Shown here piece by piece: positions 1-62,194 of a stretch of 62,194 nt of DNA. Numbering within the stretch: the first letter of the stretch is position 1; each line of letters starts with the position of its first letter. The notes beneath the pieces are model-generated. The model worked only from the letters and a program-made list of their open reading frames with translations. It was not told the origin of the DNA and made no database searches. The stretch comes from a virus (lineage: Duplodnaviria; Heunggongvirae; Uroviricota; Caudoviricetes), in the IMG/VR virus record IMGVR_UViG_3300036829_000172, positions 1 to 62,194 of that record, one strand, 5' to 3'. The position numbers were made by a program, and so were the translations under genes.

Positions 1-1047
1 GGTGCCGCTGTTCGCGCCGCTGCCCGCGCTGCCGCTGACGGTGGCCGAATTACCGCCGGCGCCACCGGCATACGCGACTCCGCCGCCGTCACGTCGGGCC
101 CCGCCGCCGCCGCCGGGCGCACCGCCGGTGGTGTTGTTCACCGCTGTGAGCCCATTGCTGCCGTTACCCGACCAGCCGCCGACCGCGCCAGCGGTGCCGC
201 TGTGAGTGGTGGGGCTAGCGCCACTGACAGTGGTGGTGCCCGCAGCGCCAGCGGTGCCGCCCGCACTGCCGCTGCCACCATTGCCAGCGCCGCCGCCGCC
301 GCCAGCTGTCAGTGAGATGGAGCCCGACGAGAATGTGGCGTTCGCACCGTTATTCGCGGAGCCGCCGCTGGAGTTCGACGCGGTGGATGGGGGTGTGCTG
401 ACGCTGTAGGTGGTGCCCAGAGATGCAACAGGGATGAAGAACCGGTCAATCTTGCCCGCACCGCCACCGCCGCCGCCGCCGGCCACATCGGCGAACGCTC
501 CGCCGAAACTCCACCCACCAGCGCCGCCGGCACCGATCAGAGTGACCCATACACCGGCAGTGTTTGCCGGGACGGTGCCATTGGTGATGTTCTGGTTGAG
601 GTCATTGAATGCGGTAAATGCGTTCGCTCCGCTCATGGCGACAGCAAGCGTCAGCGCGATTCCGAATGTACGAGCGTACTGCTCGGCGCCGACCATACCG
701 ATAGCCAGCGACAACGGTACGTTGAAGGTGCGTGCGTACAACTCGGTAGCTGCCATAACGACGGCAGGAGTGACGTCCACTGTGAAAGAAGCCGGTGTGG
801 GCGTTGGTGTCTCAGCGCCAACAACTAACGACAACGCAACGTTGAAGTCAGCGACGGATACTCCGGCAGCCGCCATATCGCACGATGGCGTTAGTGAAAT
901 ACCGAACGCCCCAACAGATACCGGTGCCGGTACCATGCCAACCTCGAGCGATATTTGCACCTGGAATGCGTAATTCAGTGCCGCCCACCACGACACACCA
1001 CCCGGTTTCTGCACGGGCGGCGGGGTAGCGCCCCAAAACGTCGGCAC
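1..1047 (-). CDS. Glycine-rich minor tail protein (3' end outside window; not in ORF track)
   Basis: GTG at 1047 directly after upstream TAA; reads MPTFWGATPPP...VWVTLIGAGGAGG...GGGGGGGAG, apparently open to position 1. Confidence 0.8.
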   Translation of the reverse strand, partial: MPTFWGATPPPVQKPGGVSWWAALNYAFQVQISLEVGMVPAPVSVGAFGISLTPSCDMAAAGVSVADFNVALSLVVGAETPTPTPASFTVDVTPAVVMAATELYARTFNVPLSLAIGMVGAEQYARTFGIALTLAVAMSGANAFTAFNDLNQNITNGTVPANTAGVWVTLIGAGGAGGWSFGGAFADVAGGGGGGGAGKIDRFFIPVASLGTTYSVSTPPSTASNSSGGSANNGANATFSSGSISLTAGGGGGAGNGGSGSAGGTAGAAGTTTVSGASPTTHSGTAGAVGGWSGNGSNGLTAVNNTTGGAPGGGGGARRDGGGVAYAGGAGGNSATVSGSAGSGANSGT

Positions 1048-3579
1048 TTACGTCTGCCTCGCCGTGATCGAGACGTAGCCGTCCGCGCCGTCCGCGCCGG
1101 GATCGGCGTAGGGCCCCGCGCCGCTGCCGCCCGCGCCCGGGTACCCCGCATAGGGGGTGTACAAAGTTGTCGGCCCGCCGAAGTATTGCTGACCCTGCCA
1201 GGTGAAGTCGCCGGGGCCGATGCCTTGGCTGGCGCCGCCGTGATTCGAGAAACCGCCGACCAGCCCTGCCTGACCACCCGCACACGTCAGTGTGTGCGCA
1301 ACACTGGAGGGATCAGTCCACGAAATCGTTGTCGCGTCACCGTTTGTGCCGTTGCCGCCGGGACCACCTGGACCACCGTTGCCGACGACGATGGTCAACG
1401 ATGTGGCGGTAGTGGGATAGTCGACGCCGCACACCAACGTGATCGCGTTCCACGTGCCGCCGAGGCCACCCTCGCCGCCGAGGAAGTATCCCGACCCGCC
1501 GCCGCCGCCGCCCGCGCCCAGACCGACCAAATCCAGTTTCGTGCCGGCTACCTTGGCGAAATCCGGGATGGTGTAGGTGTAGGTGCCGTTGGTGACATAC
1601 TCGTCGACCTGATTCGGCATGTAATTCGCTGGAACATCAAGGATGCCGAAATTGATGTAGGGCAGGGTGCTGTTGTAGGTGATCTGCGAGTCGGTGATGG
1701 ATGCTGGTGTGGCCCCTCCGGTGGACGCGATGGTGCGCACCGCAGCGAGGTTGGGAGGGTAGGCGGTCGGATGGTTCGGCGTCGGAATCTGTTTGGTGGC
1801 CACCGACAACGTGCCCGAGCCAGCGTTGACTATCCCCAACGCAAAGAGGTCACCGGCAGCCACCGTTGGCTGGCTGGCACCCGGTATGAGTGCTCGGACG
1901 TATCCCACCGACCCGTTGGGTACCAGCGATGAGATGTCTGAGGAGTTCCACAGCGCCGTCTTGACTCCCGTCGACGGGTTCACTTTGTACACGTTGACGA
2001 AAATGTTTGTGCCACCGTTGCCTTGGGCCAGAAACTCGACGAAGCCTTTCTTGGCGGATTCCGCTGGCCGGAACATTGCGATTATCGAGGTTCCTGCTGC
2101 CACGGCGGTCATGGGTGTTGTGCTGCCCGCGGTGAAGTCGGTCAGGTGGAACGTGGATTCGCTGGTCGGGTCCAGGCCGGCGCGTACCGGCTTGTTGGTC
2201 CGCTGCGTCAACGTCTGCTGGTGGAAGACGGCCAGATTGATGGCGTCCCACGCCTGTTGGGCGGTGGTCTGCATCAGGCTGAACAGTTGGGACAAGTCGA
2301 GCCCGCTCTTGGGTGCGTTGGCCAACGCGGAGCCCAGACCGTCGAACATGTTGTTGAAGGTGGTGACGAGGTCTTCGATGCCTTGCATACCGGCGACGCT
2401 GGAGCCGTCGATCTGGGGGATGTTCGACACGTTGCCCAGCCAGCTGGAATCGATGACGCCGTGCAGGTAGTGCACCGCGTCGTCGAAGTACACATCCCCG
2501 GCCGAGACGGTCGCGGTGACCTCCAAGCAGAGGGTGATATACGACGTTCCGGCGGGGGCTTGGTGGCTGCCGGTCAGATGCTGCCACGTCGGCTGATCGG
2601 TGGCGGGGGCGGTGATCGAGGCCAGCACCCGCTGTGGGTCGGCAGCGATCAGGTTGTGGTTGATGTCCCATGCGTTGGCGCTCAATTGGATGGCCGCGCC
2701 GGGCCCGGCGACGACACCCGACCACGACACCCACACCTCGAAGTCGGTTTGCTGGCCCGGCTTCGTGTTGATGGGTACACCGTCGAGCTGACGCAACTCG
2801 CTGGCCCCGGTGGTGTGCACGGAGCCGACGACGGTGGAGTTGACGGTGCGCCCGACGGTGCCGCTCCAATCCCACTTGCCTTCCCCGTCGATCACCTTCG
2901 GGTCGTCAAAGCCGGGATCGGGCAGCAGGTTGTTGCTCAACACGGAGGTGCTGCCGGGCATGACGTCGAGCAGGTGCGGCGGGATCGGTGTCGAGGTGGT
3001 CAGCGAGCCGGCCGGGACGAAGATGTCCAGCAGCCATTCGCCGGCGTGCTCGATCGGGTCGAACACGGTGGCCTGCAGATCGGGAAGCCCCAGCAGCGCC
3101 CCCAGGTTGCTCCACGATAGTGACCAGGCGGTGCGCAGGTCGGCGGCGTCCTTGCCGGTTTGGCTGCTGCCGGTCAGGACGTCCCACAGCACATCGACGA
3201 TGTCTTGGGGCAGCTGGGATCCGGCGAACAGGTTGGTGGGCAGCAGGATGTTGTTGATGAAGTCGTGCGCGGCCTGGTCGACGTTGAAGTTGGGGTCCAG
3301 CGGGTTGAGCTCGCCGAGGAACGTTTCAAGGTTGGCGAAGTAGGTGTTGAGCTCCTCGAATCCGGCGTCACCGCCGGAACCGTCGAGGTTGAAGCCCAGC
3401 AGCCCGTTGAGGAACCCCTGAAACAGGGAGGTGACCTGGTTTCCAGTGCTGGCGGCCTGCTTGCCGACGACACCCGACACGCCCTGGTCGAGCTGGTTGA
3501 GCGGATCCTTGTCGACGGTGAACAGATTGGCGCCGGCCAGCGCGTTGCTGCCCGCCTTGAGGTCGATCGCTCCGGCCAC
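1048..3579 (-). CDS. Minor tail protein with carbohydrate-binding-like domain and Gly-rich C-terminus
   Basis: NLLPDPGFD...VYFDDA sugar-binding-type motif, C-terminal LVGLGAGGGGGG; position in tail operon. Confidence 0.8.
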   Translation of the reverse strand: MAGAIDLKAGSNALAGANLFTVDKDPLNQLDQGVSGVVGKQAASTGNQVTSLFQGFLNGLLGFNLDGSGGDAGFEELNTYFANLETFLGELNPLDPNFNVDQAAHDFINNILLPTNLFAGSQLPQDIVDVLWDVLTGSSQTGKDAADLRTAWSLSWSNLGALLGLPDLQATVFDPIEHAGEWLLDIFVPAGSLTTSTPIPPHLLDVMPGSTSVLSNNLLPDPGFDDPKVIDGEGKWDWSGTVGRTVNSTVVGSVHTTGASELRQLDGVPINTKPGQQTDFEVWVSWSGVVAGPGAAIQLSANAWDINHNLIAADPQRVLASITAPATDQPTWQHLTGSHQAPAGTSYITLCLEVTATVSAGDVYFDDAVHYLHGVIDSSWLGNVSNIPQIDGSSVAGMQGIEDLVTTFNNMFDGLGSALANAPKSGLDLSQLFSLMQTTAQQAWDAINLAVFHQQTLTQRTNKPVRAGLDPTSESTFHLTDFTAGSTTPMTAVAAGTSIIAMFRPAESAKKGFVEFLAQGNGGTNIFVNVYKVNPSTGVKTALWNSSDISSLVPNGSVGYVRALIPGASQPTVAAGDLFALGIVNAGSGTLSVATKQIPTPNHPTAYPPNLAAVRTIASTGGATPASITDSQITYNSTLPYINFGILDVPANYMPNQVDEYVTNGTYTYTIPDFAKVAGTKLDLVGLGAGGGGGGSGYFLGGEGGLGGTWNAITLVCGVDYPTTATSLTIVVGNGGPGGPGGNGTNGDATTISWTDPSSVAHTLTCAGGQAGLVGGFSNHGGASQGIGPGDFTWQGQQYFGGPTTLYTPYAGYPGAGGSGAGPYADPGADGADGYVSITARQT

Positions 3580-3588
3580 CGCGCACCC

Positions 3589-61725: not shown

Positions 61726-61726
61726 C
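61606..61726 (+). ncRNA. Array units 10-11
   Basis: GGCCA-ttatcggtt-CGTTACCCA-tagtggtag-CGCC; AGCCA-gagtgcatt-CGGCATCCA-tcacacgca-CGCC. Confidence 0.85.
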
Positions 61727-62194
61727 GTGACCATCGAAACGTTCGTGCGGACATCGGGTGCCGTCATAGGTATCGCCCGAGAATCGTTTGGGCCCGGCGG
61801 CGGTCTGCCGCCGCTCGCACCCGTCGCAGGGGCTGTACCAGCGGCACCGCCGGCGTCGGGCCGGACAGCAGACGCAGCCACTAGCGACTCGAGCGACGTC
61901 CAGAACGCAGTCGCCACGCTGAGCGAGCACGACCAGACCAGCCACCAGCAGATCGCCGACGCGGTCACTGCGGCCGGGGCCGGCCGCGGCCGCATGGACC
62001 GAATCATCGTCGCCGCCCTGGCCGACGTGGGCGATGCGGATATCTCGACGCCGCAAGGTCAACGCGCGCTGGTCGAAGCCATAACCCGGCACCTTGAAGA
62101 CAGCAAGTCCACGGTGGACGGGACCGGCGCGGATGCGGCCACGAGAGCGGCCGCGGCACACACCACCGCCGCTGGGTATAGCGGTGTCGCGCCC
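61727..62194 (+). CDS. Second DUF4226-like protein (3' end outside window; not in ORF track)
   Basis: GTG 61727 reads MTIETFVR...AGRGRMDRII...STPQGQRALVEAITRHL. Confidence 0.65.
   Translation, partial: MTIETFVRTSGAVIGIARESFGPGGGLPPLAPVAGAVPAAPPASGRTADAATSDSSDVQNAVATLSEHDQTSHQQIADAVTAAGAGRGRMDRIIVAALADVGDADISTPQGQRALVEAITRHLEDSKSTVDGTGADAATRAAAAHTTAAGYSGVAP

Follow-up and report, generated by a model that had tools for sequence, protein, structure and literature searches.

A recurrent phage/plasmid hybrid: conjugation and ESX-P genes within the head operon of large tailed phages

Gene content of the element

The window analysed here, a stretch of 62,194 nucleotides, comprises bases 1–62,194 of one 195,582-bp virus record in IMG/VR (IMGVR_UViG_3300036829_000172) and forms the first third of a tailed-phage genome. 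Of particular interest is a 57.5-kb block, flanked by the capsid gene (at 24.9 kb) and the prohead protease gene (at 82.6 kb), that contains virD4, tcpC, virB4, a MOBF relaxase and the ESX-P genes minus eccA. An initial annotation of the window had proposed a candidate conjugative phage-plasmid in which an intact capsid-to-tail operon stands 1.3 kb from virD4. Details of the block are given below (coordinates refer to the window unless the contig is named).

25184–26082 (+): accessory phage gene resembling a glycosyltransferase, plus a small gene, at the left junction of capsid and module; no repeat resembling an attachment (att) site
26265–28638 (−): virD4 coupling protein gene and gene for a conserved 225-aa membrane protein; Walker A intact, virD4 inverted relative to plasmids
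28920–38137 (+): cluster resembling a type IV secretion system (T4SS): conserved hypothetical gene, tcpC, virB4 and a multi-transmembrane (multi-TM) gene, with small phage-like genes interspersed
30531–31454 (+): tcpC/VirB8-like gene, part of this cluster
32373–35138 (+): virB4 (VirB4-like AAA_10), part of this cluster
36086–38137 (+): 'virB6-like' multi-TM gene with six TM-like segments
40999–46791 (−): MOBF (TrwC/MobF) relaxase-helicase gene, 1930 aa; NCBIfam MobF 223 bits, cut-off 100
47091–51080: series of small genes of phage-like character, one of them HNH-type
51103–52522: XRE-type helix-turn-helix (XRE-HTH) regulator and a gene resembling targets of type VII secretion systems (T7SS), a divergent pair
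52654–62194 (+): ESX-P upstream genes (PPE, a 779-aa conserved gene, DUF4226 and a lysozyme-like gene truncated where the window stops), arranged colinearly with plasmid pSMC-4_4
contig 64529–80882: ESX core (eccB, eccCa, eccCb, PE, PPE, two esx genes, espG, espI, eccD, mycP, eccE)

The virD4 gene (26265–27722, reverse strand) matches both PF02534 and PF12696, and its end lies 1,331 bp away from where the capsid gene starts, the distance first described. The tcpC, virB4, relaxase and ESX-associated genes of the initial annotation are likewise all present: PPE (beginning at 52654) and the DUF4226 gene (58228) lie in the window, and an NlpC/P60 gene followed by the ESX core lies downstream of it. 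Its virB6-like gene stands in part: the product has six TM-like segments and is 45–50% identical to, and syntenic with, a plasmid hypothetical gene, but it has no Pfam or NCBIfam match, and the putative label draws on position and hydrophobicity. The small phage-like genes that had been noted across the plasmid part are real, with six of the 73 block genes matching three phage relatives that lack the module (hereafter module-free).

Catalytic motifs are intact throughout: Walker A in VirD4, VirB4, MobF (at 624) and EccC, the N-terminal tyrosines and HLH motif (at 290) of the relaxase, and D/H/S in MycP. The element thus holds virB4, virD4, tcpC and a MOBF relaxase with intact motifs, as in a pRAW-type T4SS, together with eccB, C, D and E, mycP, an esx pair, PE/PPE and NlpC/P60 genes of an ESX system; eccA is missing. 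The division of EccC is not a lesion, the identical EccCa/EccCb split being found in pSMC-4_4. Also within the module is a TIGR-Tas gene with a dual-spacer array (59882–61725, forward strand; NCBIfam NF052498, 219 bits, cut-off 100). The array has 11 dual-spacer units, with an isolated twelfth at contig 77601, between eccD and mycP; its spacers found no target at 0–1 mismatches in 2.8 Mb of compared loci.

The virion genes surround the block.

1–10701 (−): minor tail and tail-tip genes (Gly-rich minor tail 1048–3579, Gp37-like 6835–8859, distal-tail candidate 9586–10701)
10701–17735 (−): tape-measure gene, ∼2300 aa, with lysozyme and NlpC/P60-like segments
17732–22460 (−): tail assembly chaperones, major tail tube (18690–19289) and head-tail connectors, common to module-free relatives
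23473–24933 (−): HK97-type major capsid protein gene, 486 aa (PF05065, E 1e-18)
contig 82611–87836 (−): terminase, portal and prohead protease genes, outside the window
contig 190379–193680 (−): two lysis enzymes and a candidate holin with two TM segments, past the circular join and outside the window

Capsid, tail tube, tape measure, Gp37-like and Gly-rich minor tail genes are all open frames, so that the capsid-to-tail operon is intact as first described, and the gene set of a member of the Caudoviricetes is complete: terminase, portal, protease, HK97 capsid, tail tube, tape measure and lysis genes. The initial annotation had called for inspection of the full replicon; terminase, portal, protease and lysins are indeed on the same contig, and a plasmid rep or parA is not. 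The capsid is 50–55% identical to those of Bipper and prophiT37-1 and 76–77% identical to those of module-free IMG/VR phages. Affinities of the capsid, ESX and PE/PPE proteins point to a mycobacterial host.

Although the record is a metagenome contig classed as linear in IMG/VR, bases 1–126 are identical to bases 195,434–195,559, an end overlap of 126 bp that closes it into a circle of 195,433 bp. A 414-codon Gly-rich frame, the one starting at 1047, stays open over the join. Neither tyrosine integrase, resolvase nor serine recombinase (PF00589, PF00239, PF07508) was found on the element, an extrachromosomal circle without an integrase.

Assembly and recurrence of the junctions

The sequencing run that best matches the element is a soil metagenome. 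A Logan contig from this likely source run, a second and separate assembly, covers positions 24387–31718 with zero differences, at a depth (13.9) equal to that of the virion part (13.3) and virB4 (15.3). This spans the junction at 24.9–26.3 kb, for which confirmation had been sought from the outset. Virion and module parts also have matching depth in runs X1, X2 and X3 (43, 39, 44 and 46 in X3). Run X5 and other small-share runs were left out of the evidence.

Relatives ∼90–96% identical are contained in two runs from other studies (2022 and 2025), and the order virD4, glycosyltransferase-like gene, capsid recurs in contigs from eight Joint Genome Institute (JGI) samples, which may represent few campaigns. 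Both junctions, including protease|eccE, are kept in the 187-kb contig Ga0642625_00072 of JGI 3300072492 (about 90% nucleotide identity). Both are also kept in the 165-kb ENA ERZ25039552 contig_128496 (∼75% DNA identity), for which a Logan assembly has the same genes; the two lengths are lower bounds. In the 165-kb relative (L145:11252–13826) the capsid gene is inverted, separated from the tail genes and faces virD4 over an endonuclease VII gene. Searches of IMG/VR with single VirB4, VirD4 and MobF proteins and with an EccD alignment returned no relatives; a VirB4 alignment, the sole query to yield any, returned one. No TrwC or module genes were found in the IMG/VR soil relatives that were tested.

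Insertion site and plasmid origin of the block

In most related phage loci of sufficient length, terminase, portal, protease and capsid genes are contiguous or a few kb of accessory genes apart, with more than 10 kb in two. In IMG/VR soil relatives, small accessory genes fill the protease–capsid gap over lengths from 0 to >10 kb. The block shares its gene order with the 70-kb circular plasmid pSMC-4_4 and with pMchErm55 and M. riyadhense p1, at 45–70% identity. It begins at virD4 and ends at eccE, genes that are near neighbours in all three plasmids. Because these two ends adjoin in plasmids, gene order suggests that the block represents a whole pRAW-like plasmid circle opened at eccE|virD4. 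The geometry is the opposite of a prophage in a plasmid: here a phage head operon holds the plasmid circle as a fixed insert.

The replicon is a different matter. Between its XRE-HTH regulator and T7SS-target-like genes, pSMC-4_4 carries parA and a 576-aa gene, which occurs on 113 actinobacterial plasmid records and probably encodes Rep; the element has only ∼200 bp there. Two genes relevant to its replication and maintenance lie outside the window, and a search of the element for DNA polymerase A was negative.

contig 179869–180927: phage-type replication initiator
contig 145410–147176: ParB-like gene, also in module-free relatives

GC and GC3 (GC content at third codon positions) of the virion and conjugation core modules are alike. 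The module borders match over no more than 12 bp, which is chance level, the median for control pairs being 11. Megablast of 8–30 kb stretches against plasmids and phages gave no match, and the closest PLSDB plasmids are only ∼60% identical and have no portal.

Selection and phylogeny

In comparison with the 187-kb relative (synonymous divergence, dS, 0.1–0.4), ratios of nonsynonymous to synonymous divergence (dN/dS) for virion genes are 0.085 (capsid), 0.051 (portal), 0.083 (terminase), 0.137 (protease) and 0.125 (tail tube). Those of the module are 0.10 (virD4), 0.13 (virB4), 0.09 (tcpC), 0.13 (eccD), 0.07 (mycP) and 0.15 (eccE). Against the 165-kb relative, at dS 0.7–1.3, the core genes of both modules have dN/dS of 0.09–0.37 and zero stops. 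These ratios indicate that the core genes of the virion and conjugation modules are under purifying selection. Hybrids form one clade (100/96) in the capsid tree, sister to the module-free phages L008, L014 and L072, and one clade (99/98) in a tree of VirB4, MycP, EccE and TcpC.

A sister module in a second virion type

Outside this family, the module has its closest relative (VirD4 clade 100/99; four-gene tree 100/100) on a 126-kb contig whose terminase, portal, major head and major tail belong to families unlike those of the main element. Its head protein is ∼60–63% identical to those of cluster-B-type mycobacteriophages (∼70 kb). A matching IMG/VR record of 113.7 kb is 99.98% identical where compared, and neither integrase nor ParA was found in it; the two records probably derive from one site and are counted once, as a third lineage with a genome estimated at ∼133 kb. 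Its module has the unpermuted eccE–virD4 order and also lacks eccA next to eccE; the opening is instead between mobF and the virB6-like gene, where 84 kb of phage genes are enclosed. This module encodes a 1761-aa TrwC frame, with a relaxase-domain dN/dS of 0.24 between lineages. Phage-borne modules thus form one clade apart from plasmids, residing in two unrelated phages at two opening points. Directly before the terminase of this hybrid (L183:4051–9931, ENA ERZ27256510) is a DNA modification cluster of TET/JBP-ADDT type.

Other features of the genome

The tape measure (∼2300 aa) differs from that of close relatives (L149; 1924–1984 aa), to which it is a partial match at ∼31% identity; the capsid of these same relatives is 97% identical, which suggests rapid exchange of the tail module. 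A second tail-fibre cassette (contig 93826–98741), comprising Gp77/Gp80-like genes and a 1384-aa repetitive minor tail, lies on the opposite strand within the tRNA region and varies in length among relatives. That region is an array of 30 tRNA genes (contig 89317–102396), with none in three module-free relatives; M. avium linear plasmids are known to carry tRNA arrays (PMC12803027). A tRNA-Gly predicted by ARAGORN at 4098–4176, antisense within a tail gene, is probably spurious. A short second S78 protease-like gene is found at contig 113002–113457, and a similar one adjoins eccE in the distant relative. A TROVE/Ro60 gene (contig 168095–169909), Ku (149112–149915) and a beta-clamp homologue (152694–153881) are also present in module-free relatives.

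Proposed mechanism and alternatives

Together the above analyses establish the element as a real, old and recurrent phage/plasmid hybrid. We propose a past fusion between a lineage of large tailed phages infecting soil mycobacteria and a conjugative plasmid resembling pRAW, whose circle, opened at eccE|virD4, would have been fixed in the variable protease–capsid slot. The fused plasmid would have lost its own rep/parA and eccA, and the phage replicon would now copy the module, with replication of the circle from the phage-type initiator. In the lytic cycle, as in known families, an HK97-type head and long tail would be built, the genome packaged and the host lysed. In some cells a non-integrated carrier state may persist long enough for mating: MOBF would nick a putative origin of transfer, VirD4 would feed the strand into a VirB4/TcpC channel, and contact across the mycobacterial envelope would be made by ESX-P and its NlpC/P60 proteins, as in pRAW, where virB4 and eccC are essential and the core is 55 kb (PMC4173767). 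The whole phage genome would move from cell to cell, giving two horizontal routes. This dual transmission is argued from intact genes under purifying selection, and that these are tailed phages that additionally conjugate is the reading we favour, by a little over an even chance.

Several observations weigh against it. We did not find eccA (PF21545) on the element; an AAA gene at 141 kb was rejected as a candidate, being also in a module-free phage. In some eight close-relative records (P0397–P0407, from JGI and Logan and including the 187-kb contig) MobF is called as a 1322-aa product, starting at residue 608, that has the helicase and C-terminal part without the TrwC nicking domain. Such a call may reflect a split gene, an insertion, loss of the domain or a start-calling effect. 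For stable carriage the element offers a ParB-like gene and the phage-type initiator, with no integrase and no clear lysogeny switch; the rep-like gene and parA of pSMC-4_4 have no match anywhere in its genome, and the only match to PF13614 in the ParA search was EspI, with no partition ATPase otherwise. Complete module-free relatives measure 114 and 127 kb against 195 kb here, and therefore the head either grew or cannot hold the whole genome; co-integrates are expected to exceed capsid capacity (10.1101/2025.08.29.673033). Finally, hybrids are not one clade in the terminase plus portal tree: the 165-kb element groups, weakly (86/81), with module-free L008/L072, and because of this placement module loss or mosaicism in that group is possible.

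Part of this evidence suits a narrower role for the module. The virion route might work while the module is kept for secretion of PE/PPE/Esx proteins, for cell contact or exclusion, or for transfer with a relaxase supplied in trans. The shortened MobF of several close relatives and the missing eccA favour such a role, and M. avium linear plasmids retain T7SS/T4SS genes without relaxase or virD4 (PMC12803027). We nonetheless regard it as unlikely: full-length relaxase frames exist in this genome (1930 aa), in the third lineage (1761 aa) and, with 1919 aa, in the 165-kb relative; strong purifying selection acts on virD4, tcpC and virB4; comparison between lineages shows constraint on the relaxase domain; and the 1322-aa call may itself be a split gene or start-calling effect. 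Somewhat less likely still is that the element outgrew its capsid and moves by conjugation only, particles packaging partial genomes (transducing, or like gene transfer agents) or an occasional module-free deletion. Genome sizes speak for this (195, ≥187 and ≥165 kb, compared with 114–127 kb without the module; the estimated ∼133 kb of the third lineage against ∼70 kb for cluster B), as does the weak nesting of L008 and L072 inside the hybrid clade. However, carriage of the head, tail and packaging genes in virions is the simplest account of the purifying selection on them, no recombinase or border repeat is available to excise the block, the virion part shows no excess depth, and HK97-fold heads are able to change triangulation number (PMC7150772).

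The remaining explanations concern the fusion itself. A recent co-integrate, a prophage in a plasmid or a resolving tandem of phage and integrative and conjugative element (ICE) could account for a block that is a permuted whole plasmid circle, and such fusions are on record (p1002-1, 10.1101/2025.03.14.643293; PMC13651849). This is largely refuted and very improbable: integrase, resolvase and recombinase are absent, the border match is at control level, the insertion point is unchanged at dS near 1, GC and GC3 do not distinguish the modules, plasmid rep/parA are gone, and the nearest PLSDB plasmids are distant and portal-free. A chimeric assembly, conceivable for a metagenome contig classed as linear, is refuted to the point of negligible probability, since the second assembly crosses the junction with identical sequence and matching depth, other samples and pipelines yield both junctions again, and the overlapping ends circularise the contig with a frame that stays open over the join. 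Misassembly and an att-marked prophage in or beside a plasmid, the two outcomes that the initial annotation named as fatal to its proposal, thus both fall away.

To our knowledge, spread by both virus particles and cell-to-cell contact has so far been demonstrated for no phage-plasmid. On present evidence the hybrid is a new variant; it would be categorically new if both transfer routes hold. We give an even chance to the existence of 'conjugative phages' as a class, in which tailed mycobacteriophages with two or more unrelated virion types share one domesticated T4SS/T7SS/relaxase clade, have neither integrase nor plasmid replicon, and transmit the whole genome in virions as well as by mating. 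The fusion is old, is present in several soil studies and in two virion types, and both machines are under selection. If functional, it could let a phage evade receptor limits and spread through contact in biofilms or dry soil, would provide type VII secretion loci with a new vehicle among mycobacteria, and would offer a test case of how capsid size tracks genome growth.

Comparison with known systems

A literature search, thin on subscription journals, found no paper on a mycobacteriophage with T4SS, ESX-P and relaxase genes. 'Mycobacterium phage Adler', a phage-labelled record with a VirB4-like gene 25% identical to that of the element, is no precedent, having been reinterpreted as plasmid pMAB02 without core phage genes (PMC5562415). 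The virion part compares with cluster Y/J mycobacteriophages (Bipper, Omega), whose capsids are 45–55% identical and whose genes follow the same terminase–portal–protease–capsid–tail order.

The module compares with pRAW-type plasmids (pRAW, pMchErm55, pSMC-4_4, M. riyadhense p1), which have the same gene set and order at 45–70% identity (virD4, tcpC, virB4, MobF, NlpC/P60, eccB-C-D-E, mycP, espG, espI and PE/PPE/esx), the same natural EccCa/EccCb split and a core of ∼55 kb. In contrast to these plasmids, which have no portal, the element is embedded in a phage, is opened at eccE|virD4 with virD4 inverted, and lacks eccA, the rep-like gene and parA.

Like the phage-plasmids P1, N15 and the SSU5-like group, the element combines complete virion genes with plasmid-derived genes on a non-integrating circle. 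Of the original proposal of a conjugative phage-plasmid, the single element with complete virion and conjugation gene sets stands, but the plasmid label does not in its strict sense: there is neither a plasmid-type initiator (Rep) nor a partition ATPase (ParA). P1-like plasmids acquired mob genes after loss of phage genes (PMC10879196). Nor is the element an ICE, a phage-ICE tandem or a prophage in a plasmid, as integrase and att repeats are absent. Virion and conjugation genes also share one molecule in the E. coli fusion p1002-1, named a 'conjugative phage-plasmid' (10.1101/2025.03.14.643293), and in phage-ICE tandems, described as integrase-driven 'rather than a hybrid element' (PMC13651849). 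Whereas p1002-1 is a single described fusion and the tandems depend on integrase, the element reported here belongs to an old family found in multiple samples, with no integrase, one replicon and two virion types.

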